Notes: a model not told the origin generated them from the sequence alone. A stretch of 64,000 bases of DNA from Alphaproteobacteria bacterium (GCA_015062345.1 SUUV01000003.1:15572-79571), one strand, 5' to 3'; shown: positions 2,921 through 57,150, counted from the stretch's first letter. A program made the numbers and translations.

Positions 2921-4354
2921 TTATTTACGAACACCGCCAAATGCCATTTCTGCATCTATATAGGTGCTTGTTCCGTCGAGCTCTTCTCTGGTTTCTCCAA
3001 AACAAGCAGAACCTACAACTTCATCAGGTTTTTTCAAGTTTTCACCATAATATTTAATGTCAGCCGTTCCGTTTATTTCATCTGTAAACGCAAAATCAGC
3101 ATCTTTTGGTGTTCCTTCAAATGCAAAAGTATATTCGCCTACATTTGCAGTATCGCTGGCAATGGTAATTTTATGCCAATCCGTAAAGTCGGCCGTAAGA
3201 GTTTCTTTACCGTCTTTAAAGTTCAAATTCATAGAACCGTTAAAGATTTTTTCTTTATCTGGTTTACCAATATTTTCGACATAAACAATGGCTACTGATT
3301 TACCTTCAAAGTTCATTTCGGTATCAACTTGCGGTAAATCTTGTGCGGTAGCTTCCAACCCTTTATAACCGCCATAATATGCCATATATCCTTTTTCGTT
3401 ACCTAGGTTATAATCCACTTTTCCGAAATCGCTGTATTTTAATCCTACGGATTTTCCTAAGCTATCCATTTTAACCGATTGTGGAAGTGACTCTTTATAA
3501 AAACAATTGCCTTGTTCTTCACAAGTGTCTTCATCTAAAAACTCACCTAAATCAGCACTATCTAACCAAGCCAACACTTTTTCTTCTGTTTGAGTATCAT
3601 AACCGCCGTTTTTAACTTTGTTTTTGAATGCTTCTACAATATCTTCTTTGGTAGCATCTTTATCGACAATAATGCTATGACTTGAGTAAAAGTCTCCGTC
3701 TGCATCAGAAATTGCACAGACAAATCCATAGCTGGTATAACCTTTGGTATTTTTATAAACTCCGTTACCGGCATTGGTATATTCAATAACACCGGTCGGA
3801 GAATCGTCATGGTTAATTTTTAACCCTTTAACATTTTGATTTTCATCAACAATAAAAGCATATCCGTCATCTTCAAAAGGTCCGTAAAATTCAACATCAT
3901 TTAAAGACAAATTGCGCTCTGTTCCCAATTTTGCATATACATCTTCGGCTTTTTCTTTAATATCCAAATTTTGAATTTCCGATTTTAATTCATCTAAAGA
4001 CATATCTTTTAATTCTTCAATATCTTCCCCGACCAATGCCAACGACAACAAAATGTCTTCTTTGGTTGCTGTGGAAACATCTTCTTGTACCAAAATTTTT
4101 TCCATATTCTCATATGCTTTGTTAATGTCCTCAGCTGAAGTATCAGATGTAAGCCCAACCAAAGCGGCTGCATCTTCATATGCTGTTGTGCGTTCTTGAG
4201 TGTTATTAACCGCCTTAATGCTTGTACCGACATTCGGTAAGGTTGTATGCGGAATATGACCGTGTCCGCCGCCACCTCCGCCACCACAAGCAGTTAAAGC
4301 CGTTGTAAGCATCAATGTGGTTAAAATAGTTGAAAGTCTCATAGTTCTCTCCAT
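2921..4354 (-). CDS. Lipoprotein with a poly-Gly tether and a C-terminal beta-rich domain; candidate surface-exposed lipoprotein (TbpB/fHbp-like architecture).
   Basis: Lipobox LTAC followed by GGGGGGGHGH. C-terminus reads ...GEYTFAFEGT...AEMAFGGVRK. Adjacent to, and co-oriented with, the Slam-like gene. Confidence 0.5.
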   Translation of the reverse strand: MERTMRLSTILTTLMLTTALTACGGGGGGGHGHIPHTTLPNVGTSIKAVNNTQERTTAYEDAAALVGLTSDTSAEDINKAYENMEKILVQEDVSTATKEDILLSLALVGEDIEELKDMSLDELKSEIQNLDIKEKAEDVYAKLGTERNLSLNDVEFYGPFEDDGYAFIVDENQNVKGLKINHDDSPTGVIEYTNAGNGVYKNTKGYTSYGFVCAISDADGDFYSSHSIIVDKDATKEDIVEAFKNKVKNGGYDTQTEEKVLAWLDSADLGEFLDEDTCEEQGNCFYKESLPQSVKMDSLGKSVGLKYSDFGKVDYNLGNEKGYMAYYGGYKGLEATAQDLPQVDTEMNFEGKSVAIVYVENIGKPDKEKIFNGSMNLNFKDGKETLTADFTDWHKITIASDTANVGEYTFAFEGTPKDADFAFTDEINGTADIKYYGENLKKPDEVVGSACFGETREELDGTSTYIDAEMAFGGVRK

Positions 4355-4785: not shown

Positions 4786-4993
4786 TTGAGGAAATAAAAA
4801 TCTTGATAAGATTTTTATGACGAAAGGTGAACTTTTGTTAGCTTTTGAGCTAGTGACAACGACGCGAAAAAAGCGTTACAAAAGGAATGACCGCAGCGAG
4901 TTAGCGAACATTTGTGAGCTTATCGAGCCAGAGCTAGCAACGCAAATTTTCAAAAAACTTTTTGAAAATTTATATTCGTAAATGCGAAAAAAA

Positions 4994-5069
<76 letters not shown>

Positions 5070-5160
5070 ACATCTATATAAGTGAGCTTACCATAATTTG
5101 AGTAAAAATAAAAATCAAGTGTTTTTTTAAAATACACAGTTCTTATTAGAAAAAATCTTA

Positions 5161-5298
5161 CCTCATTTTTGATTTAAATCCACAAATAGACTCTTTTTAC
5201 TTGCAAAAAAAAAAAACGGTTTATGATGCGTCTTGAAAGGGCATTTTTGCCTTTTGAATGAAAATTAAGTTAAACTATTTTTGTAAAGGATATAAATT
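5161..5298 (+). promoter_or_regulatory. Conserved promoter-leader module (copy B1): TTTGATTTAAAT box, TTGCAA, A12 tract 5215..5226, TATGAT, leader hairpin, RBS.
   Basis: Near-identical to seven other copies in the window. Confidence 0.7.
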
Positions 5299-5763
5299 AT
5301 GAGAAAATATTTTCTTTTATCTGCTGTTGCGCTTTTAACTGCAACCACAGCAAATGCAACCACCGACTATGCTGAAGTAACAGCTAAGGCTACAATTGAG
5401 GTGGCATCAGTATTTAGTTGCAGTGATTTAAATTTTGGTAAAATTGTTGTAAAAAACGGCCATGAAGATACTTATGTTGTTCTCGGTTATGAAGTAGAGT
5501 ATGACAAGGAAAACATCATATCATTTTCAGAATATGAAATGGCAGCTTGTAATAATCTGCTTGAGGTAACAGGCAATGATAGTATTATGCTTGATCATGC
5601 AACTTTACCTGAAACCATTACTTTATCAGGACCAAACGGAAGTAAATTAACAGTATCTGATTATCAAATATTTGATTGGGACTTTGGCGGTAAATTAAAT
5701 ATACCGGCAGGTATTCAAGCTGGCGAATATACAGGTTCATTTACCGTAACTGTAACATACTAA
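5299..5763 (+). CDS. Secreted small protein, MRKYF family paralog 1 (Csu/SCPU-pilin-like).
   Basis: Signal peptide MRKYFLLSAVALLTATTANA. CSDLNFG motif. C-terminal GEYTGSFTVTVTY. Followed by terminator 5774..5803. Confidence 0.8.
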   Translation: MRKYFLLSAVALLTATTANATTDYAEVTAKATIEVASVFSCSDLNFGKIVVKNGHEDTYVVLGYEVEYDKENIISFSEYEMAACNNLLEVTGNDSIMLDHATLPETITLSGPNGSKLTVSDYQIFDWDFGGKLNIPAGIQAGEYTGSFTVTVTY

Positions 5764-7705: not shown

Positions 7706-7918
7706 TTTTTCCTCACAACAAATTATTTTCTTACCAAGATAAAACAAAATATTTACAATGCAAGAACTTTTATAACAACCGCATAATATTTTGCAAAAAA
7801 ATATGATAATTTTGATGTGTAATACTTGACATTTTATTTAAGAATAATTAAAAGATATGGGTGCTAGCAATATATAAGAGTTTGAAAACAAACTCTATTA
7901 AAAATTTTAAGGAACGAC

Positions 7919-10000
7919 ATGTCTGAAAAACAAAATCATGACTTAAACGAGGGAACAAGTGTTGATTCCCCTTTGATTGACTCGCTTGGCAGCGCAGTCA
8001 AAAACCTTATTGAAAAAGGAAAAGAGCAAGGTTATATCACTGTTGAAGACCTAAACCGCGCCCTACCGCCGGAAAAAGAATCTTCGGAGCAAATTGAAGA
8101 TATAATGTCAAGTATATCTGATATGGGTATCAGTATCATTTCCGAATCGGAAGCCGACAGCCTCGATTCGGAGGATAATCATGAAGAAGGCGAATATGTT
8201 GATGAAAGCGGAAACTTTGATGAGAAAGATTTAGGCCGCTCTGATGATCCTGTCAGAATGTATTTAAAAGAAATGGGGCTTGTTGAGCTTTTGTCCCGAG
8301 AAGGCGAAATTGCCATCGCAAAGCGCATTGAGGCCGGTAAAACCGTTATGATAAGCGGTTTGTGTGAAAGTCCGATGACATTAAAAGCCATTGCGCAATG
8401 GCGAGATGAGTTGCTTGAAGGAACAATGCAACTTCGTGACATTATAGACCTTGAGATGATGTATGGTGATGATACCGAAGCCATGGTTTATGATGATGAA
8501 GAAACCCAAGTTGATGATTTGGATAAGGTTACCAAAGAGCTTGCGGAAAAAAATCTTGATGAAATAGATGATGATTTAGCCACTGATATTGAGCTTGGCG
8601 ACACTGTCGATGATGAAGAAGATATGGACGATTTAGATGAAAACGAATCGGAGGAAAATTCTGAAATTGATGGTGAAGGCAACATAAAAAGTGTCGATTC
8701 ATTAGATGATGAAGGTTCAATCGGTCACAGTGCAACCTCAATCTCTACAATGGAAACCGCATTGATTGAGCCGGTATTGGAAATTTTGACTAAAATATCA
8801 AGCTATTATGATGATTTGAAAAAAATTCAAACTCAACGCATGGCGGCAATTATGTCGGGAAGAAAAGTTACTGCCAATGTTGAGAAAAAATATATTAGGG
8901 TCAAAAAGGAATTAGTTGAGTTGATGAGCTCCATTCATCTTAATTCTTCAAGAGTTGAGCAATTGGTTGAACAACTCAACGAACTTAACAAGCGTTTAAT
9001 GGGTATGGAAGGTAAGTTGTTGCGTTATGCAATGTCTTGCAAAATTAAACGCGAAGACTTTTTGGAAAGTTATCAAAAATCGGAGCTTGACCCCAATTGG
9101 CTTGATGAAATTTCACAAATTAAGGATAAATATTGGCAGATTTTTGTTGAGCGCTACGGTAAAGAGATTGCAGAGCTCAGAGACGGTATTGCTCAGATGT
9201 CGCAAGAATGCGGTTTGCCGATAACGGAATATCGCAAGATGGTTGATACAATCAAACGCGGTGAGCGAGAAGCCGAAAGAGCCAAGAAAGAAATGATTGA
9301 GGCAAACCTGCGTTTGGTTATTTCGATTGCTAAAAAATACACAAATCGCGGTATGCAGTTTTTAGACTTAATCCAAGAAGGCAATATCGGTTTGATGAAA
9401 GCCGTTGATAAGTTTGAATATAGAAGGGGTTACAAGTTTTCAACATATGCAACATGGTGGATAAGACAAGCCATAACTCGTTCAATTGCCGACCAAGCAA
9501 GAACTATCAGAATTCCGGTACATATGATTGAAACCATCAACAAACTTGTCAGAACTTCTCGTCAGATGCTTGCCGAAATGGGTAGAGAGCCTGTGCCGGA
9601 AGAATTGGCAAAAAGGTTATCAATGCCTTTGGAAAAAATCCGTAAAGTGATGAAAATTGCCAAAGAACCGGTAAGCTTGGAAGCACCTGTCGGTGATGAA
9701 GAAGATTCTTCATTGGGTGATTTTATTGCTGATGAAAGCGCATTGCAACCTCTGGACAGTGCAATTCATTCTAACTTAAAAGAAACTTGCAGCAAAATTT
9801 TATCTTCCTTAACTCCGAGAGAAGAAAGAGTTTTGCGTATGCGTTTCGGAATTGATATGAGCACTGACCATACCTTAGAAGAAGTCGGACAGCAGTTTAA
9901 TGTAACCAGAGAGCGCATTCGTCAAATTGAGGCCAAGGCTTTAAGAAAATTAAAACACCCGAGCCGTTCAAGAAGACTTCGTTCATTTTTGGATCAATAA
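7919..10000 (+). CDS. rpoD: RNA polymerase sigma-70 factor.
   Basis: Regions 1.1-4.2 are present ([31 protein letters not shown] region 4). Long acidic non-conserved spacer. Confidence 0.95.
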
Positions 10001-10495: not shown

Positions 10496-11134
10496 CTAGT
10501 AATACCACATGATATAAACTCTGCAACTGGAACTAGTCTTTAAGCAACTATTACAAAGGGTGTCTATGTCACTAATTGTCATAGTTTTAAGACATTTTAC
10601 ATTATCCGTGCAGTAAGCATCTCCGTATAAATTACCATTAGATGTTGATATCTGTGTTTGCATATCTCGGCTATCGGTTGTTACATATCCTAGTTGAAAG
10701 GAGTTAGCTTTGGCAACATCAATAAGATTATAGCAAATATCCAGTTCATCGGAAGTAAAACTATAACCTATGCCTGACCTTTTCATTGATGTATTATAGA
10801 ATAACCAGATGTCATTATTAAACATATCTTTCAGAAATGTAGGGTCACGGGCAATTTCAAAACCATCCGGGACAAAGCCGGCTTTATAAAATGTTTCTGT
10901 ATACCAAGCTGTTCCGTTTTCATCAATAGAACCTGCAAAATTGGTTGTTTTTTCCGATTGTTGAATAGCAGTATTTAGGAGCATATTAAAGCTTTGAGCA
11001 TGCGTATTTAGTTTATATTTCATCATCGCTTTAGAATATCCGGCAATAGCACCGACCGATAAAACTCCGATTATGGCCAATACACCAAGCATTTCAACCA
11101 TACTTCTTCCAAGCTCACAAATTTTTCTCATCAA
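10496..11134 (-). CDS. Type IV pilin-like protein, paralog 1.
   Basis: Class III signal peptide MMRKICELG|RSMVEMLGVLAIIGVL with E at +5. C-terminal Cys pairs. Confidence 0.7.
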   Translation of the reverse strand: MMRKICELGRSMVEMLGVLAIIGVLSVGAIAGYSKAMMKYKLNTHAQSFNMLLNTAIQQSEKTTNFAGSIDENGTAWYTETFYKAGFVPDGFEIARDPTFLKDMFNNDIWLFYNTSMKRSGIGYSFTSDELDICYNLIDVAKANSFQLGYVTTDSRDMQTQISTSNGNLYGDAYCTDNVKCLKTMTISDIDTLCNSCLKTSSSCRVYIMWYY

Positions 11135-11215
11135 CTAACTCCATATATTATATTCTGTTCACATTCTAAACCGTTTTTTTTTTTTGCAATTTTAAAGAGT
11201 CTATTGTGGATATTT
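11135..11215 (-). promoter_or_regulatory. Promoter of pilin-like gene 1, with the same TTGCAA-A12-CGGTTTAGAAT core as the MRKYF promoters.
   Basis: Reverse complement reads agactcttt..ttgcaaaaaaaaaaaacggtttagaatg. Confidence 0.6.
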
Positions 11216-11290: not shown

Positions 11291-11470
11291 AAGTCCGCCT
11301 CCTAACTGTCACTCCGGCACTTGATGCTGAAATCCGCCTCCTCACTGTCACTCCGGCACTTGATGCCGGAGTCCAGGTGGTAATATAGCTTTATTTATTC
11401 CTAGATACCGGTGTCTATTCCAAGCTAAAGCTTGGGCACCGATATGACCGTGATGAGAGAGACACCTCTA
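11291..11470. repeat. Conserved structured element A, copy 1. Its 5' ~40 bp are tandemly duplicated.
   Basis: Shared with 22619..22751 and 53737..53880. Contains nested inverted repeats. Confidence 0.7.
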
Positions 11471-11607
11471 CACCATTTTTGATTTAAATTCTTTATTAGA
11501 CTCTTTTTACTTGCAAAAAAAAAAAACGGTTTATGATGCAATGTGAAAGGTTAATTTTGCACCTTTCAAATGTACTTAAACTTAATTTTTGTAAAGGATT
11601 TAAAATT
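11471..11607 (+). promoter_or_regulatory. Promoter-leader module B2 (A12 tract).
   Basis: Same module as B1. Confidence 0.7.
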
Positions 11608-12075
11608 ATGAGAAAATATTTTCTTTTATCTGCGGTTGCAATGCTCGTTGCAACATCAGCAAACGCAACCACAGACTATGCCGAAGTAACCGCTAAAGCT
11701 ACAATTGAAGTGGCTAATACTTTTACTTGTTCTGATTTAAACTTCGGTACCATCGTCGTTAAACAGAATAATGGTGATTCAAAAGTTATTGCCAATTCTG
11801 TCGTAGGAGTAATTTTTGAAGGAGACATTTTATCTGTTAGCAGTGATGCATCATATTCACAATGTCATGGCTTTGGCGAAACAATGGATCCTGAAGGTAG
11901 CTTTAATACTTCCGTTCCTGATTCTGTACCACTTACAGATGGAACTAATGAATTGGAAGTTAAACCTTCTTTAGATAGTTCGTCCATGGATATTATTGGT
12001 GGTGAATTAGAAATCCCTGCCCATGTTAAAGCAGGTGAATATACAGGTTCATTTACCGTAACTTTCACCTACTAA
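11608..12075 (+). CDS. MRKYF family paralog 2.
   Basis: MRKYFLLSAVAMLVATSANATTDYAEVTAKATIEVANTFTCSDLNFG...GEYTGSFTVTFTY. Start chosen at the conserved MRKYF, not at the ORF-track extension. Confidence 0.8.
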   Translation: MRKYFLLSAVAMLVATSANATTDYAEVTAKATIEVANTFTCSDLNFGTIVVKQNNGDSKVIANSVVGVIFEGDILSVSSDASYSQCHGFGETMDPEGSFNTSVPDSVPLTDGTNELEVKPSLDSSSMDIIGGELEIPAHVKAGEYTGSFTVTFTY

Positions 12076-15693: not shown

Positions 15694-16296
15694 ATGATTT
15701 ACGGATATGTGCGTGTGAGCAGCGACAAACAAACAACTCAAAACCAAATTTTTGAAATAAATTCTTTTGCAAAAAGTAACAATCTTAAAATTGACAATTG
15801 GATAAACGAAACCATAAGCGGACTGTATGATGTAAAAAAAAGAAAACTCGGTAAGCTCTTAAAAAAAATGAAAAAAGGCGACATTATGATTAGCTCCGAG
15901 CTTTCAAGATTAGGCCGCAATTTATTGCAGGTTATGAGTATTTTATCATATTGTATGGAGCACGAAATTGCTGTTTGGACCATAAAAGATAATTATCGAT
16001 TAAGCATTGATATTCAGTCAAAAATTATGGCTTTTGCGTTCGGATTATCGGCAGAAATTGAACGCAATTTGATTTCTCAGCGAACAAAAGAAGCTTTGGC
16101 TCGCTTAAAAGCCGAAGGTAAAACTTTGGGAAGACCTAAAGGAACATTAAAAGCTCAATATGTTTTAGAGCAAAATAAAGAGCAAATTTTAAATGATATA
16201 AAATCTGATGTACCTTTTATTAAAATCGCCGACAAATTTAATGTTTGTGATAAAACCTTGCGAAGATTTTTAAAAAAAAATAATATTAGCTATTGA
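15694..16296 (+). CDS. Small serine recombinase (resolvase/invertase family).
   Basis: N-terminal YGYVRVSSDKQ catalytic motif. C-terminal HTH. 200 aa. Confidence 0.85.
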   Translation: MIYGYVRVSSDKQTTQNQIFEINSFAKSNNLKIDNWINETISGLYDVKKRKLGKLLKKMKKGDIMISSELSRLGRNLLQVMSILSYCMEHEIAVWTIKDNYRLSIDIQSKIMAFAFGLSAEIERNLISQRTKEALARLKAEGKTLGRPKGTLKAQYVLEQNKEQILNDIKSDVPFIKIADKFNVCDKTLRRFLKKNNISY

Positions 16297-21362: not shown

Positions 21363-21860
21363 TTATTCACTTACCATGGTAAATGTAAAGGCACCTTTAT
21401 AAACACCGGTTATTAATTCAGAAGAACCGGATATATGAAGTTTGCCGGTAAGGACATTATCAAAAGCACCGCCTAATGCAATATCCGTTAAATATATACC
21501 ATAACCAGTATTATCTGTATGAGCCAGGTCAACAGAATCTGGTGCATACAATGTATAATTTTCAATATTCATATCGGCTCCGATTGAACATTCTGCAGAA
21601 GTATTTCCTATAGCAGATACAAAATATTCTGTTCCTTCAACAGCGGTAATGTTACCGAAACCGTCATCTTGTACGGTTACATCATGTGAGATGTCTGTTA
21701 GATAAATTTTACCCCAATTCCACACAGAACATGATGCTTTGGTTGCCAAAGCAAGCTCTGCCTGAACCTCAACATTGAAACCTTCTGTATAACCTGTTCC
21801 GGCATTCACATTTGTTGCAACCATCAAAGCCACCGCTGATATTAGAAAATATTTTCTCAT
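21363..21860 (-). CDS. MRKYF family paralog 3 (two-Cys subfamily).
   Basis: MRKYFLISAVALMVATNVNA...CSVWNWG...GVYKGAFTFTMVSE. Confidence 0.8.
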   Translation of the reverse strand: MRKYFLISAVALMVATNVNAGTGYTEGFNVEVQAELALATKASCSVWNWGKIYLTDISHDVTVQDDGFGNITAVEGTEYFVSAIGNTSAECSIGADMNIENYTLYAPDSVDLAHTDNTGYGIYLTDIALGGAFDNVLTGKLHISGSSELITGVYKGAFTFTMVSE

Positions 21861-22003
21861 TTTTAAAATTCCTTTACAAAAATTAAGTTTAAGTACATTT
21901 GAAAGGTCAAAAAATCACCTTTCACATCGCATCATAAACCGTTTTTTTTTTTTGCAAGTAAAAAGAGTCGTTTAAAAGATTTAAATCAAAAATGAGGTGT
22001 TTT
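21861..22003 (-). promoter_or_regulatory. Promoter-leader module B3 (T12 on the plus strand).
   Basis: Reverse complement matches the B consensus. Confidence 0.7.
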
Positions 22004-22751: not shown

Positions 22752-22888
22752 ACCTCATTTTTGATTTAAATTCACATTTAGACTCTTTTTACTTGCAAAA
22801 AAAAAAAACGGTTTATGATGCGATGTGAAAGGTAAATTTTTGCCTTTCAAGTACATTTAAACTTGAATTTTTGTAAAGGATACAAATT
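22752..22888 (+). promoter_or_regulatory. Promoter-leader module B4 (A12).
   Basis: Consensus module. Confidence 0.7.
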
Positions 22889-23377
22889 ATGAGAAAATAT
22901 TTTCTTTTAAGCGCAGTTGCACTTTTAGCAAACATAACTGCCACATCAGTAAGTGCCGGAACCAATACATCAGCTAATGTAAATGTTGTAGCTTCAATTA
23001 ATCATGTGAATGAAATTAATTGTTCTGTATGGAATTTTGGCAATATATTTGTTAAATCTAATCAAGAAGATGGAAGTACCATTTTTTCAGTTATAGCAGA
23101 TTATGAACTTAATGCATCTTCCGTTGATGCTATTGTAAGCTCTTATGGATACGAACCTGCAAGATGTAATTTTGGAAATTTTAATCAAGAAAATTATACT
23201 TTTTACTTTCCTGAAAAAGTTACACTTACAAGTACAGATGGTGGAGAAATATATTTAACCGATTTGAGTTTTGACTCATTTGACATTATTGCAGGAACAT
23301 TGTCTTATGATTCTACGAATGCTTCATATGACGGAAATTATACTGGCTCATTTATTTTTACTTTGCTATCTGAATAA
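22889..23377 (+). CDS. MRKYF family paralog 4 (two-Cys subfamily).
   Basis: MRKYFLLSAVALLANITA...CSVWNFG...GNYTGSFIFTLLSE. Confidence 0.8.
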   Translation: MRKYFLLSAVALLANITATSVSAGTNTSANVNVVASINHVNEINCSVWNFGNIFVKSNQEDGSTIFSVIADYELNASSVDAIVSSYGYEPARCNFGNFNQENYTFYFPEKVTLTSTDGGEIYLTDLSFDSFDIIAGTLSYDSTNASYDGNYTGSFIFTLLSE

Positions 23378-32690: not shown

Positions 32691-32807
32691 CCACCTCATT
32701 TTTGATTTAAATATCTTTCATAACTCTTTTTACTTGCAAAAAAAACTGTTTACGATGCGTATTGAAAGGTAAATTTTTGCACCTTTTAAAATTAAGTTTA
32801 ACTATTT
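32691..32807 (+). promoter_or_regulatory. Degenerate promoter-leader module B5: A8 tract, -10 mutated to TACGAT, RBS lost.
   Basis: Aligns to the B consensus with decay. Confidence 0.6.
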
Positions 32808-33105
32808 ATGAGAAAATATTTTCTTTTATCAGCCATAGCCCTCTTGGCTGCAACAAATGTTAATGCAACCACAGACTATGCCGAAGTGACTGCTAGGGCT
32901 AAAATTGAAGTAGCAAATACTTTTGAATGTGATGATGTTGATTGGGGAACAATTGTTGTTAAAGCCGAAAATTAAGAACAGTGATAATGTATTATATGCT
33001 ACATTCAATGCCGACAGTGATAATTTGTGGCCTGTATTAAATATCCCTGCCAATGTTGAACCTGGTGAATACGAGGGCGTGACTACAGTAGTAGTAACTT
33101 ACTAA
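32808..33105 (+). pseudogene. MRKYF family pseudogene: internal deletion plus frameshift.
   Basis: MRKYFLLSAIALLAATNVNATTDYAEVTARAKIEVANTFEC... then a stop at ~32974. The conserved C-terminal ...GEYEGVTTVVVTY continues in another frame (32923..33105). Total length is ~100 codons against ~160 in intact copies. Confidence 0.75.
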
Positions 33106-50028: not shown

Positions 50029-50868
50029 ATGCCCGAATTACCCGAAGTCGAAACCATTAAAAGAGCACTTGATAAAGTCATTAAAGGTGCAAAAATTTCA
50101 GATACTAAAGTTTTTTGCCGCAAGTTCAGAGTGCCAATCCCCGATTGTTTTGAGCAAAAAACAATATGTGCAACCATAACCGACATAAAAAGAATCGCAA
50201 AATATATTGTACTCGAGCTAGACAATAAACATAGCATTATTTGGCATTTGGGTATGAGCGGAAAAATAAAAATTTGCGAATCCGTACCGCAAGATTTGCA
50301 AAAACACGACCATGCGGTTTTTTATACCGATAAGGGCGTTATAATTTTTAATGATGCTCGTCGTTTTGGTATGCTTGACATAGTCGAATCGGCAAAATTA
50401 AATGAGCATTTTGCATTTAAAAATTTGGGAATCGACCCTTTTGATGAAAAATTAACCGCCGACTATTTGAAACAAAAATTAAAAAACAAAAAAACACCTG
50501 TCAAAGTTGCACTTCTTGACCAGTCCGTCATAAACGGAATCGGCAATATATATGCCTCAGAAGCTTTATATTCGGCAAAAATTTCACCTTTAAGAGAATC
50601 GTATACTTTAAGTTTGGCCGAGTGCGAATCGCTAATTGAGGCCATAAAAGAAACCTTAACCAAAGCCATTAAGGCCGGCGGTTCCACATTGAGAGATTAT
50701 GCAAAACCTGACGGTTCAACCGGATATTTTCAAGACGAGCACTGCGTATATAACAAAACCGGACAAGCGTGCCCTAACTGCAGTTGCAACCTGAAAACAA
50801 CAAAAGGAATTAAAAAAATTGTGCAAGCCGGACGCTCAACTTTTTATTGTCAAACCTTGCAAAAATAA
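50029..50868 (+). CDS. mutM: Formamidopyrimidine-DNA glycosylase.
   Basis: N-terminal MPELPEVE and a C-terminal zinc finger CPNCSC. Confidence 0.92.
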   Translation: MPELPEVETIKRALDKVIKGAKISDTKVFCRKFRVPIPDCFEQKTICATITDIKRIAKYIVLELDNKHSIIWHLGMSGKIKICESVPQDLQKHDHAVFYTDKGVIIFNDARRFGMLDIVESAKLNEHFAFKNLGIDPFDEKLTADYLKQKLKNKKTPVKVALLDQSVINGIGNIYASEALYSAKISPLRESYTLSLAECESLIEAIKETLTKAIKAGGSTLRDYAKPDGSTGYFQDEHCVYNKTGQACPNCSCNLKTTKGIKKIVQAGRSTFYCQTLQK

Positions 50869-51340: not shown

Positions 51341-51522
51341 TGCAAAATAAAGCGAATCTGCCCGACTCTGCAGAATCCTTATGTCAAGTAAAATAATTGC
51401 AATGTTCTAAAAATGTTCTGTTGTTTTTTATTTTTTTATGTTTAGTATACGAATCACTTTAAGAGTTATTATCGACTTTTATAAAAAACAATTTGTATCA
51501 ATTTAATAAAAGGGAAGTAGAT

Positions 51523-52962
51523 ATGGCTGAAGAAGCAATAAAAAACAATGAATTTTCTGTTCAAGACCAATGGGGACAGATATGCAGCCAATTAAAGTTG
51601 GAGTTCGGTGAAACCGCTTTTGACAGTTGGTTAAAGCCTTTGAGTGTCGGTTCATTTACCGATGGTGTGATGAACATTTGTGTACCGACCGCTTTTATGA
51701 AAAACTGGGTAATTACTCACTATTCGGATCGAATCCACAAAATTTGGGAAAACAAGAATCCCGAAATTAAAAAAGTGAACTTTGTGGTACAAACCGTACA
51801 AACACAAATCCGCTCCAATCAAGACACTTCCTTATTAAAGAAAATTGACTCCACCCCTACTCCGCAAAACTTTTATACTTCGGCATATTCCAATGTTGTA
51901 AACTTCAATGAATATGTTCGTCCCGAGGGAAGTTCTCAACTTTCGGCTCCGTTAAATCCGGCTTATACTTTCGAGTCGTTTGTGGTTGGTAAAACCAATG
52001 AGTTTGCATATGCGGCAGCCAGAAAAGTTGCCGAATCGAAAACCGTATCATTTAATCCGTTGTTTTTATATTCGGGTGTAGGTCTTGGTAAAACTCACTT
52101 AATGCATGCCATAGCTTGGCATATCAGAAAACAAGACCCGAGTCGCAATGTGATATATTTATCGGCCGAACAGTTTTTATATAAGTTTGTAAAAGCTTTG
52201 CGCTATAAAGATACCACCGCATTTAAAGAACAGTTCAGAGCTGTTGATGTGTTGATGGTTGATGATGTTCAGTTTATGAGCAACAAAGGTTCAACTCAGG
52301 AAGAATTTTTCTACACTTTCAACTCATTGATAGAAGAAGGTCGTCAGATTATAATTTCAGCCGATAAATCTCCGTCTGATTTAGAGGGAATCGAGGCTCA
52401 TTTGAAATCCCGTTTAAACAGCGGATTGGTAGCTGACATTCACCCCACTGATTTTGATTTAAGAATGGGCATTTTAAATCATAAAGCTCAGCAAATGGGC
52501 ATCGCTTTACCTGAAAAAGTTGCTGAATTTTTAGCACAAAAAATTACGACCAACATCAGAGAACTTGAGGGTTCTTTGCGTCGAATCGCCGCTCATTCTC
52601 AGTTGTTGTCAAACAAAGAAATCACCTTGGATATGACACAAGATGTGCTAAAAGATATGCTTCGTTCTTTGGATAGAAAAACCACAATTGATGAAATTCA
52701 GAAAAAAGTTGCTGAGTACTTTAACATTTCGGTTAAAGAGTTGCAGTCATCAAGGAGAGCCAGAACAGTTGCCAGACCTCGTCAGATTGCAATGTATTTA
52801 GCAAAGCAACTTACATCTCGTTCACTTCCGGAAATTGGTCGCAAGTTTGACAGAGACCACACAACGGTTATGCACGCAGTCAGAAAAGTTGAAGAACTGA
52901 TTGTTGAAGATTCATCACTGGCTGAAAATGTTGATGATTTAAGACGCGCTTTAGAAAATTAA
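51523..52962 (+). CDS. dnaA: Chromosomal replication initiator DnaA.
   Basis: AAA+ motif GVGLGKTHL and a C-terminal DnaA-box-binding domain. ATG at 51523 with an AAGGGAAG RBS. Confidence 0.95.
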   Translation: MAEEAIKNNEFSVQDQWGQICSQLKLEFGETAFDSWLKPLSVGSFTDGVMNICVPTAFMKNWVITHYSDRIHKIWENKNPEIKKVNFVVQTVQTQIRSNQDTSLLKKIDSTPTPQNFYTSAYSNVVNFNEYVRPEGSSQLSAPLNPAYTFESFVVGKTNEFAYAAARKVAESKTVSFNPLFLYSGVGLGKTHLMHAIAWHIRKQDPSRNVIYLSAEQFLYKFVKALRYKDTTAFKEQFRAVDVLMVDDVQFMSNKGSTQEEFFYTFNSLIEEGRQIIISADKSPSDLEGIEAHLKSRLNSGLVADIHPTDFDLRMGILNHKAQQMGIALPEKVAEFLAQKITTNIRELEGSLRRIAAHSQLLSNKEITLDMTQDVLKDMLRSLDRKTTIDEIQKKVAEYFNISVKELQSSRRARTVARPRQIAMYLAKQLTSRSLPEIGRKFDRDHTTVMHAVRKVEELIVEDSSLAENVDDLRRALEN

Positions 52963-53013: not shown

Positions 53014-53577
53014 CTACCAATACACATCTATCGTACACCAACCTTCGCCGCAAGCAGCTGTGCAAGCGTTACTTATTTGTGACATATTTATATTGGTCAT
53101 ATCTTCCGGAGAAAACAGCTCTATACTATACGGACTATCTATTCTAATGAGCCCATAAGAATGTAAGTGCTTATATATACCGCTTGTAAAAAAGGCATTA
53201 CACATATCAACAGCAAAGTCATTTGTAGGGTGTATAATAAAATATGTGGAACCATTTGTGCTACTCTCAAATTGATAACCACCAATAGGAAGTTTGCACT
53301 TATGACCATTATAATGCTCATCAAAATATAAATCACAGTCAAGACCTATTTTAGGTGCGTCTTCAACATCTATGTCACCCGTTAAGGAACCGGATACTTG
53401 TAATTCAGTCAATTTTGCAAAAGCACCTGATACAATATCTAATGTTGTGTTTATTTTATGTTTTAGCATGGCTTTTGAGTAACCGGCAATGCCACCAACA
53501 GATAACACACCGATAATAGCCAAAACACCGAGCATTTCTACCATACTTCTTCCAAGTTCACAAACTTTTCTCATCAA
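53014..53577 (-). CDS. Type IV pilin-like protein, paralog 2.
   Basis: The N-terminal 40 aa are nearly identical to paralog 1 (MMRKVCELGRSMVEMLGVLAIIGVLSVGGIAGYSKAM). The C-terminus is divergent and Cys-rich. Confidence 0.7.
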   Translation of the reverse strand: MMRKVCELGRSMVEMLGVLAIIGVLSVGGIAGYSKAMLKHKINTTLDIVSGAFAKLTELQVSGSLTGDIDVEDAPKIGLDCDLYFDEHYNGHKCKLPIGGYQFESSTNGSTYFIIHPTNDFAVDMCNAFFTSGIYKHLHSYGLIRIDSPYSIELFSPEDMTNINMSQISNACTAACGEGWCTIDVYW

Positions 53578-53660
53578 CTTACTCCTTTAAAACATATTTT
53601 GAGCTCAGCATAAACCGTTTTTTTTTTTTGCAATTTATACGAGTCTTCTTTGTGGATAAT
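53578..53660 (-). promoter_or_regulatory. Promoter of pilin-like gene 2 (TTGCAA-A12-CGGTTTATGCT).
   Basis: Reverse complement matches the shared core. Confidence 0.6.
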
Positions 53661-53736: not shown

Positions 53737-53880
53737 AAGTCCGCCTCCTAACTGTCACTCCGGCACTTGATGCCGGAGTCCAGGTTAAATTATATAGCTA
53801 AATTATTCCCTGGATACCGGTGTCTATTCCAAGCTAAAGCTTGGGCACCGGTATGACCGTGATGGGAGACAACACCGCTA
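53737..53880. repeat. Structured element A, copy 3.
   Basis: Hairpins H1/H2/H3 intact. Confidence 0.7.
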
Positions 53881-54016
53881 CCTCAAATTTGATTTAAATT
53901 CACAATTAGACTCTTTTTACTTGCAAAAAAAAAAACGGTTTATGATGTGATGTGAAAGGCGATTTTTAGCTTTTCAAGTACATTTAAACTTAATTTTTAT
54001 AGAAAGGATTAAAATT
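53881..54016 (+). promoter_or_regulatory. Promoter-leader module B6 (A11).
   Basis: Consensus module. The tract is one A shorter than in other copies. Confidence 0.7.
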
Positions 54017-54505
54017 ATGAGAAAATATTTTCTTTTATCTGCTGTGGCTTTAATGACTGCAAGTAATGTTATGGCTGCAACAACAGCATCAACTGATGTA
54101 GAAATTTCAGCAAGTATTGAACTTATGAGCAATATAAATTGCTATGAACCGGAGCCGCTGTCATTATCTGTACGAGCCGGCAATGATGATTTGTCCATAG
54201 ATTTAGCAAATCCTAGCACTTCAAGCACTGATTATATGTTAATTGCAGGTGGAAACCCTCTGGTTGAGTGTAGTATCACTCACAAACTTGAGGGTCGAGG
54301 GTCAATAGATTTACCGGAAACAGTAACCCTAACCGGAACATCATCGGAGAAGAAACTTACTCTTACAAATTTATCAGAAATGTTTATTGCAGAACCAATG
54401 TCCGGAGTATATGCATATGGTATTGATGCAACATTAAATATTCCGGCAAACATTGATCAAGATACCTACACAGGAACTTTTACAATTTCTGCTACTTACG
54501 AATAA
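54017..54505 (+). CDS. MRKYF family paralog 5.
   Basis: MRKYFLLSAVALMTASNVMA...DTYTGTFTISATYE. Confidence 0.8.
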   Translation: MRKYFLLSAVALMTASNVMAATTASTDVEISASIELMSNINCYEPEPLSLSVRAGNDDLSIDLANPSTSSTDYMLIAGGNPLVECSITHKLEGRGSIDLPETVTLTGTSSEKKLTLTNLSEMFIAEPMSGVYAYGIDATLNIPANIDQDTYTGTFTISATYE

Positions 54506-55329: not shown

Positions 55330-55470
55330 TTTCTTACCTCATTTTTGATTTAAACACTTCAAAAGACTCTTTTTACTTGCAAAAAAAAAGATTTAAAATG
55401 CGACATGAGAGACTAATCTTTAGCCTTTCATATGCACTTAAACTTAATTTTTGTAAAGGTCCTATAGTAT
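55330..55470 (+). promoter_or_regulatory. Orphan, decayed promoter-leader module B7. No downstream MRKYF gene.
   Basis: cctcatttttgatttaaa...agactctttttacttgcaaaaaaaaa, then a degenerate -10/leader. It abuts the 3' end of rnhB. Confidence 0.6.
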
Positions 55471-56540: not shown

Positions 56541-56679
56541 TACCTCAAATTTGATTTAAATTCACAATTAGACTCTTTTTACTTGCAAAAAAAAAAAACG
56601 GTTTATGATGTGATGTGAAAGGTGAGTTTTGCACCTTTCAAGTACATTTAGACTTAATTTTTATAAAGGAATTAAAAAA
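56541..56679 (+). promoter_or_regulatory. Promoter-leader module B8 (A12).
   Basis: Consensus module. Confidence 0.7.
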
Positions 56680-57150
56680 ATGAGAAAATATTTTCTTTTT
56701 ACAGCTGTAGCCCTCTTGGCTGCAACAAATGTTAATGCCGATGAATTTGGTACGGTTAATGTAAATGCAACGGTTGAACAAGTTACACGCATTACTTGTT
56801 CTGCACTTGAATTAGGTACTATTTATATTGATTCTTCAAAAGGTTCATCCGGTAGTTATACTATTAATCTTGGCAATGCGGAAAACATTGAAGGAGCTAT
56901 CGTAAGGGTTGATGATACAAGTCAGCCAAGGTGTACTTTTGGCGGAGCGATAGATATATCAAAAGTGGAAATTCCTTCAACATTACAAATTGAAGATGTT
57001 CCGGCAGGAAATGTGATGAACATTACATTACTTCCCAAAGATTATGAAGCCAGTAATGGAATATTGGATATTGAAGCAGAGATAGAAATAGATGCTGATT
57101 TTGACGCCGGAGATTATACAACATCGTTTAATGTTTTTTACATCGATTAG
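56680..57150 (+). CDS. MRKYF family paralog 6.
   Basis: MRKYFLFTAVALLAATNVNA...GDYTTSFNVFYID. Confidence 0.75.
   Translation: MRKYFLFTAVALLAATNVNADEFGTVNVNATVEQVTRITCSALELGTIYIDSSKGSSGSYTINLGNAENIEGAIVRVDDTSQPRCTFGGAIDISKVEIPSTLQIEDVPAGNVMNITLLPKDYEASNGILDIEAEIEIDADFDAGDYTTSFNVFYID

Follow-up and report, generated by a model that had tools for sequence, protein, structure and literature searches.

A candidate length-constrained poly-A tract in the promoter spacer of pilin-like and DUF4402 genes of herbivore-gut Alphaproteobacteria

In the stretch of DNA analysed here (64,000 nt, called the window below), pilin-like and DUF4402 genes are preceded by a promoter module with a full length of 39 bp, GACTC-N7-TTGC-A12-CGGTT-TAnnnT, which, as predicted from sequence, directs transcription of a large surface-fibre-like regulon; its carriers are uncultured Alphaproteobacteria of one clade from herbivore guts. 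The explanation that we favour, and hold to be somewhat on the probable side, is that the A-run is a length-constrained promoter element, in which occasional slippage gives shortened, probably silenced copies. A phase-variation switch that is on at twelve adenines ranks second and is a tentative possibility; the proposal of an earlier note on this DNA, that gained adenines turn the promoter on, is very unlikely.

The window is chromosomal DNA with 34.5% G+C, which carries rpoD, gltX, dnaA, groEL, pntB and the gene of RNase HII, and the Rfam search of it returned tRNA-Thr only. Using a regular expression for GACTC-N7-TTGC-A(n)-CGGTT-TAnnnT on both strands, we found eight intact copies, seven with A12 and one with A11, and two decayed copies with tracts of A8 and A9, which bears out the motif and the counts that the earlier note had given. 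These motif matches are as follows.

5189..5227 (+), promoter module of the DUF4402 gene 5299-5763; GACTC 5189-5193, TTGC 5201-5204, A12 5205-5216, CGGTT 5217-5221, -10 TATGAT 5222-5227
11163..11201 (-), promoter module of the type IV pilin-like gene 10496-11131; T12 on the + strand 11174-11185, -10 TAGAAT 11163-11168
11499..11537 (+), promoter module of the DUF4402 gene 11608-12075; A12 11515-11526, -10 TATGAT 11532-11537
21931..21969 (-), promoter module of the DUF4402 gene 21363-21860 (-); T12 on the + strand 21942-21953
22781..22819 (+), promoter module of the DUF4402 gene 22889-23377; A12 22797-22808
32722..32756 (+), decayed module; A8 32738-32745, AACTC in place of GACTC, flanks CTGTT and TACGAT
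53607..53645 (-), promoter module of the type IV pilin-like gene 53014-53574 (-); T12 on the + strand 53618-53629, -10 TATGCT
53909..53946 (+), promoter module of the DUF4402 gene 54017-54505, the sole A11 among the intact window copies; A11 53925-53935
55365..55400 (+), promoter remnant; A9 55381-55389, CGGTT and -10 lost, no gene downstream
56571..56609 (+), promoter module of the DUF4402 gene 56680-57150; A12 56587-56598

All eight intact copies keep the flanks, TTGC before the tract and CGGTT with TATGAT, TAGAAT or TATGCT after it. Direct reading of 4900-5600 places cTTGC-A12-CGGTT-TATGAT at 5201-5227, and an ORF starting with MRKYF begins 71 nt downstream. The earlier coordinates were 6-10 nt off, with 5211-5232 given for a tract that lies at 5205-5216 in a module at 5189-5227, and with 53915..53925 given for the A11 tract at 53925-53935. 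The module 11163..11201 on the minus strand is divergent from the one at 11499 on the plus strand, and the decayed A8 module precedes a frameshifted DUF4402 pseudogene that starts at 32808.

With at most one mismatch, TTGCAAAAAAAAA occurs 14 times in the window against 5.5 ± 2.1 expected, and none of 100 shuffles reaches 14. The whole 64,000-nt window has no A/T run of 11 or more other than the module tracts, and in 593 kb of related genomes we found no A/T run longer than 10 outside the module. As the window copies are paralogous, their repetition is the outcome of shared ancestry, gene conversion and selection and is not a series of independent chance events.

We scanned one genome per species with the pattern GACTC-N7-TTGC-A6-N{0,14}-CGGTTTA, which matched at least 78 stretches; two matches, in one Pseudomonadales MAG and one Marinobacter genome, were set aside as chance. 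At least 86 genuine module copies were found in at least 8 MAGs of uncultured Alphaproteobacteria from herbivore guts, which among the matches listed are RGIG4267, RGIG3968, SIG51 and five BRZ bins. The eight module-bearing genomes are treated as separate species by GTDB, and their flanks differ. Virtually every pilin-like or DUF4402 gene in the at least 78 related loci is preceded by the module or by a one-base variant of it. Scanning of viral contigs for the module core gave no match, and there is no sign of phage origin. Scans of metagenome contigs with a family-specific pattern and with the general module also gave no match, although the motif does occur in JGI contigs of the protein-indexed collection. 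Our literature search found no published work on DUF4402, on this promoter or on these pilin expansions.

Two gene families are served by the module, the type IV pilin-like genes and the DUF4402 genes (fimbrial-subunit-like), the latter with more than 26 paralogs in one MAG, and homologues are annotated in Alphaproteobacteria MAGs only. The pilin-like N-termini read GRSMVEMLGVLAIIGVLS and give a weak N_methyl match, and the two minus-strand genes (10496-11131 and 53014-53574) start like prepilins, with MRK(I/V)CELG/RSMVEMLGVLAIIGVLSVG. A third N-terminal type (MNLF...) belongs to pilin-like genes with long leaders. Many pilin-like genes of the BRZ MAGs carry one to three in-frame units of about 108 nt directly after the GRS of the prepilin leader (L030, L052, L059, L062, L066, L068, L074, L075 and L079), in the layout MRENGRS/ERPKNGADAQPCLSDVYKNGTRAKRRQADVPLCGRS/MVEML...; every unit ends in ..CGRS and contains the palindrome GTGTACAAAAACGGTACAC. 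The unit looks like a small repeat element with a target duplication inside the leader peptide, and the two pilin-like genes of the window are without it. Elsewhere in the window, a Slam-type surface lipoprotein assembly modifier (1571-2920) adjoins a 477-aa protein without Pfam match (2921-4354), which may be its cargo.

The information profile of 62 A12 copies is near-invariant from GACTC to the final T of the -10 and falls to background on both sides. In both gene families conservation stops right after TAnnnT, and the families share the module only; an end at exactly this point is what a -35 and a -10 separated by 15 bp would lead one to expect. With the -10 hexamer placed at -12 to -7, the module extends from about -45 to -7. 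Its invariance is partly imposed by the search pattern, which required GACTC and TTGC and left six tract positions and A-8/T-7 of the hexamer free; these unconstrained positions are also invariant in the profile. No variation in TAnnnT or TTGC was seen among more than 100 copies, which for TTGC is partly ascertainment, as the pattern prescribed it.

We infer that TTGCAA is the -35 and TAnnnT the -10, with the tract inside a 15-bp spacer, to which it contributes 10 of the 15 bases besides two bases of the -35. The earlier note had placed the tract in such a spacer, and the conserved arrangement of TTGCAA, 15 bp and TAnnnT agrees with it. The -10 is found as TATGAT, TAGAAT, TATAAT, TAAAGT, TAAGAT, TAGTAT or TATGCT, always with T-12, A-11 and T-7 kept, and this retention around a variable middle is the signature of a sigma-70-family -10. 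TTGCAA is the sole TTG-type -35 in range. Generally, the canonical sigma-70 features are present (a -10 with T-12, A-11 and T-7, and a -35 starting with TTG) except for the spacer of 17 ± 1 bp, which is 15 bp here, and a consensus sigma-70 scanner, testing spacers of 16-18 bp only, did not call the module sites.

Several other readings of the module were considered and rejected. A sigma-54 promoter (GG-N10-GC) would have GG at -24, where the module reads CT within GACTC, and it would leave the conserved downstream TAnnnT unaccounted for; the hexamers do not fit a sigma-28 or ECF type either. A -10 in the N7 segment, with a start within the A-run and reiterative transcription, is unlikely because N7 is not conserved between promoter types. 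On the opposite strand, the poly-T is not preceded by the GC hairpin of a terminator. A look-alike, TTGC-A7-TATGAT (TTGCAAAAAAATATGATAAT), lies at 7791-7810 upstream of rpoD (7919-10000) and is conserved in L001-L004; its hexamers stand much too close together to act as a promoter pair.

The 105 distinct copies listed divide into A12 (82), A11 (11), A9 (5), A8 (4), A13 (2) and A10 (1). About 20% of the copies listed are not A12, and lengths do differ among paralogs, as the earlier note had said; the off-length copies are mostly shorter. For each of the five MAGs with five or more copies A12 is modal (74-100%), as it is across all eight genomes examined. No interrupted tract was found among about 100 copies, and all 86 genuine scan matches listed are pure A, although the scan pattern left the last six tract positions free of base constraint. 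The only base changes in the tract region are two TTG-A13 variants, in which C is changed to A and total length is unchanged.

Several short copies stand ahead of intact ORFs, five with A9 (L019, L031, L069, L072 and L086) and two with A8 (L058 and L087). In other cases a shortened tract goes together with decay, namely at 32722-32756 and 55365-55400 of the window and in L088, where the tract is A10 and the start codon is lost. A9 and A8 outnumber A10, which is unlike one-step toggling.

The length distribution bears directly on the direction of change proposed in the earlier note, in which A12 is suboptimal, a low or OFF state, and a gain of one to three adenines makes a 16-18 bp spacer that is ON. 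Its arithmetic on the 15-bp spacer is correct, a few A13 copies exist, and a canonical TTGACA-16-TATAAT promoter nearby at 6291-6264 suggests that the organism uses standard geometry. However, A13 is found in only 2 of the 105 copies listed, one of them at a contig tip, and A14 or longer in none; most A13 observations lie at contig tips, and A12 is sharply modal across species and diverged strains. If A13 or A14 were the ON state, scatter on either side and drifting OFF lengths would be predicted; since A12 is universal, it is A12 that appears to be the working state. With lengths above 12 rare and A12 modal in every species examined, the gain-of-adenine direction falls away as very improbable.

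To compare the same locus in independent assemblies, orthologous loci were retrieved by exact-protein look-ups, with the following tract lengths.

Locus 5299: A12 in 6 of 7 other assemblies, A11 in one (L002)
Locus 21363: A12 in 6 assemblies and one TTG-A13 (L097; C-to-A, total length kept)
Locus 22889: A12 in 6 of 6 assemblies
Locus 53014 (pilin-like): A12 in 3 of 3 assemblies
Locus 54017: A11 also in L089 (same strain, 100% identity)
P0054 locus: A12 in 4, A10 in 1, A13 in 2 (both at the very contig tip)
P0093 locus: A12 in 2 of 2
P0106 locus: A12 in 4 of 4
A8 copy of L087: A8 in 3 further assemblies (4 in total)
Neighbouring A12 copy of L087: A12 in 2 further assemblies

The modal length is kept in 38 of 42 assemblies, all of them consensus sequences, which hide minority length variants. 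Of the four exceptions, three are found 40 nt or less from the end of a contig, in a collapsed repeat where assembly is unreliable; for example, the A11 of L002 at locus 5299 is 39 nt from the contig end, in 3.6 kb otherwise identical to a same-strain assembly with A12. Samples with the window's strain include JGI 3300029705 and 3300032167 and ENA ERZ27248446 and ERZ28654276. The A8 of L087 recurs in three further assemblies and so is stable rather than flickering. Moreover, strains 2-4% diverged from the window have indels in nearby T4/T5, A6 and A8 runs and none in A12. The indel rate climbs steeply with homopolymer length, so that a neutral A12 would be expected to change before the shorter runs. 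Together, these data show apparent stabilising selection for exactly twelve uninterrupted adenines.

The second-ranked reading is slipped-strand phase variation, in which A12 is ON and A11, A13 or shorter tracts are silent, with reversible changes at high frequency and combinatorial expression as in Mycoplasma vlp. The tract is a pure, long homopolymer in a spacer, and surface-fibre-like multigene families, such as these DUF4402 paralogs, are classical phase-variation targets. The roughly 20% of off-length copies, many ahead of intact ORFs, would be its silent members, same-strain assemblies show A12 and A11, and one locus shows A12, A10 and A13; the absence of interrupted tracts is also predicted by second-order selection for mutability. 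Against this, 38 of the 42 independent assemblies agree on the length at the locus, four assemblies share the A8 of one copy, and three of the four deviants sit at contig tips in a collapsed repeat, whereas known promoter tracts vary between strains and clones (PMC11162790). At the level of the locus, the consensus sequences thus do not show the length polymorphism between strains or clones by which a switch is recognised, and A9 and A8 are commoner than A10. The spacer homopolymer, the fibre gene families and the differences between paralogs speak for a switch such as the earlier note had suggested, and the near-invariant length at each locus speaks against it; we regard a switch that is ON at A12 as possible, with less confidence than the length-constrained element.

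For the length-constrained element, the arguments are A12 as the mode everywhere, the unchanged length in 38 of 42 orthologous assemblies and the absence of indels from A12 in diverged strains, together with the constrained base identity of the tract (86 of 86 listed scan matches pure A), the lack of other A/T runs above 10 in 593 kb and the company of short tracts and decay in some cases. Some of the data pull the other way. About 20% of copies are off-length, several with intact ORFs, which is the expected look of a reversible OFF state; short copies of this kind fit occasional promoter-down mutations equally well. Sibling samples have A12 and A11 at the same place (locus 5201) in 3.6 kb otherwise the same, the P0054 locus shows A12, A10 and A13 among assemblies, and consensus assemblies are blind to minority lengths around a dominant A12. 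Dozens of near-identical promoters on paralogous fibre genes invite per-gene stochastic control, for which the tract is the only obvious per-gene variable, and gene conversion could hold A12 without selection on each copy.

As we picture the length-constrained element, uninterrupted A12 would be the selected, working configuration. The tract would slip now and then, mostly by contraction, to give the A11, A9 and A8 copies, which are probably weakened or silent; some of these would persist unchanged in a strain and others go on to pseudogene decay. A 15-bp spacer is short for sigma-70 alone, so the promoter is probably activator-dependent or otherwise specially recognised. An invariance over 39 bp goes far beyond the usual demands of RNA polymerase, and from this we infer a dedicated activator or sigma specificity for the module. 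Being rigid, the A-tract would fix the geometry between the upstream GACTC, or a TATCC(C/A)CA element, and the -10, and gene conversion probably helps to homogenise the copies.

Exchange between copies is suggested by chimeric promoters, in which a pilin-type upstream half is joined to a DUF4402 leader or the reverse (L012 vs L088; L027, L054 and L056; L050 5868-5902), a pattern that would point to gene conversion. Strain synteny breaks about 41 nt upstream of TTGC (window ~5160 and ~21998-22002), and many metagenome contigs start or stop in the promoter cassette or the A-run (L002, L008, L010, L108, L114, L117 and L126); by these breaks and contig ends the cassettes act as assembly-breaking repeats and are probably recombination points. 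Could A12 then be kept by concerted evolution for its spacing only, with an A-run that has no role of its own and length variants that are either neutral or errors of assembly? This would account for the crossovers that the chimeric promoters have inside the shared core, for the breaks of contigs and synteny at cassettes and for the enrichment of deviant lengths at contig tips. However, a mode driven by conversion should differ between species by drift, while A12 is modal in all eight genomes, and a roleless run sits badly with the absence of interrupted tracts in about 100 copies; we consider this account unlikely.

In L012 (7775-7981) and L088 (5054-5259), a homologous segment lies between divergent cores with the flanking genes swapped, as if it had been inverted by recombination between inverted TTGC-A12-CGGTTTATGAT cores. 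Programmed inversion between divergent cores was rejected, as swaps are seen only at paralogous loci and never as two orientations of one locus. Palindromes are conserved between divergent promoter pairs (window ~11404-11444 and ~53811-53853; also L050 and L105) and comprise ATACCGGTG...AAGCTTNAGCTT...CACCGGTAT as well as CTCCGGCACTTGATGCCGGAG, which contains GAGTC. These palindromes, found by eye, have 9-nt arms, and no inverted repeat of 10 nt or more was found between divergent promoters. Elsewhere in the window, a serine recombinase (resolvase) gene lies at 15694-16296, inside an LPS/sugar gene cluster.

Downstream of the module, about 7 nt past the -10, all DUF4402 leaders have a conserved stem-loop GAAAGG...CCTTTC, where the mRNA is predicted to begin; the predicted transcription start, 6-8 nt past TAnnnT, falls at the foot of this hairpin. 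In the window the stem-loop lies at these places.

5234-5255 (+), DUF4402 leader stem-loop
11544-11569 (+), DUF4402 leader stem-loop
21899-21924 (-), DUF4402 leader stem-loop
22826-22850 (+), DUF4402 leader stem-loop
53953-53977 (+), DUF4402 leader stem-loop
56616-56641 (+), DUF4402 leader stem-loop

Four of its eight predicted pairs have at least one sequence compensated on both sides, and the loop-closing pair shows covariation. The CCTTT of the 3' arm is complementary to the downstream Shine-Dalgarno AAAGGA, and the stem-loop could stabilise the 5' end or switch translation. GAAAGG/CCTTTC is absent from the leaders of the pilin-like genes.

At the upstream end of the module, the real switch might instead be epigenetic or regulatory, with GACTC at about -45 serving as a CcrM-type GANTC site or an activator site and the A-tract only setting the geometry to the -10. 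GACTC is invariant at this position in the intact window copies, and the one natural variant found, L060, has GAATC, which still fits GANTC. The window has fewer GANTC sites than expected (110 vs 155 ± 11), with clusters just upstream of dnaA (51354-51455) and at 50192-50630. On the other hand, the scan pattern required GACTC, so that its conservation there is partly ascertainment, and two copies are without it, L026 (GCCTC) and L063; such a switch is extremely unlikely in our estimate. Around dnaA (51493-52962) there are seven GAATC in 440 nt (50192-50630) and four GANTC in the roughly 100 nt right before the gene, and GANTC depletion with clustering at dnaA resembles CcrM-bearing Alphaproteobacteria and their CcrM-controlled origin and dnaA regions.

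If the length-constrained element is real, this is a natural promoter that needs an A-run of exact length, uninterrupted, in a 15-bp spacer, and it points to an activator or a sigma specificity over a very large pilus- or fimbria-like regulon in an uncultured gut lineage. If the tract instead switches length inside populations, a poly-A contingency system of the vlp kind, set in a promoter spacer and acting on dozens of commensal fibre genes, would be known for the first time from Alphaproteobacteria. More speculative still is contingency across the whole regulon, in which 50-100 pilin- or fimbrial-subunit-like genes per genome have identical promoters, each ON at A12 and OFF at other lengths, while recombination at the core swaps upstream halves and GANTC methylation may add a layer; we hold this to be rather doubtful. 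Were it true, combinatorial surface variation like that of vlp and vlhA would exist outside Mollicutes and the classical pathogens. Under either reading, the 39-bp motif gives a precise means of locating the regulon in metagenomes, of reading per-gene states from raw reads and of designing reporter tests.

Among known systems, the module works like a promoter with a homopolymer in its spacer and possibly slips like one, and we do not file it as a demonstrated contingency locus. In Mycoplasma hyorhinis, the vlp genes have a poly(A) between -35 and -10, where a length of 17 is ON and longer tracts are OFF, with clonal change at high frequency. This work is said to go back to Yogev and colleagues in 1991 and to Citti and Wise in 1995. 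The Vlp system is cited in a review (PMC11868660). The module resembles vlp in its poly-A within the spacer, in the own copy of each member of a multigene surface family and, presumably, in one exact expressed length. It differs in a length that is near-invariant across assemblies, strains and species, in its shorter tract and 15-bp spacer, and in a host that is alphaproteobacterial and not a mollicute.

Promoter tracts are also known from fim2 and fim3 of Bordetella pertussis (poly-C) and from porA (poly-G) and opc (poly-C) of Neisseria meningitidis, where changes of spacing alter transcription and lengths differ widely between isolates. As in these cases, a homopolymer lies in or beside the -35/-10 spacer of genes for fimbrial or outer-membrane proteins, but theirs are G/C tracts of single genes, whereas the A-run belongs to an invariant promoter of 39 bp used throughout a regulon, with one dominant length. 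In Helicobacter pylori, the sabA T-tract is T13, T15, T17 or T18 by strain and varies among clones from one host (PMC11162790). This rheostat likewise has an A/T homopolymer at the promoter of a surface-adhesion gene, and it is thought to act via DNA geometry and axial alignment, not via coding (PMC11162790). Unlike sabA, the module has its tract downstream of TTG, inside the spacer, and has no such length spread between strains.

In the vlhA (pMGA) family of Mycoplasma gallisepticum, (GAA)12 upstream of each gene is needed for expression. Here too a very large paralogous surface family has its own repeat per gene and, as we presume, one permissive repeat number; in contrast, the vlhA repeat is a trinucleotide upstream of the promoter and most copies per cell are off-length, while about 80% of the module copies are at the presumed permissive length. 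For hifA and hifB of Haemophilus influenzae, van Ham and colleagues reportedly found in 1993 (TA)n repeats in a combined divergent promoter (listed in PMC11868660). The module shares with hif the fimbrial genes, the divergent pairs and the repeat within the -35/-10 spacer, but where one repeat serves both hif promoters, the two members of a divergent promoter pair have a tract each here, 290-840 bp apart.
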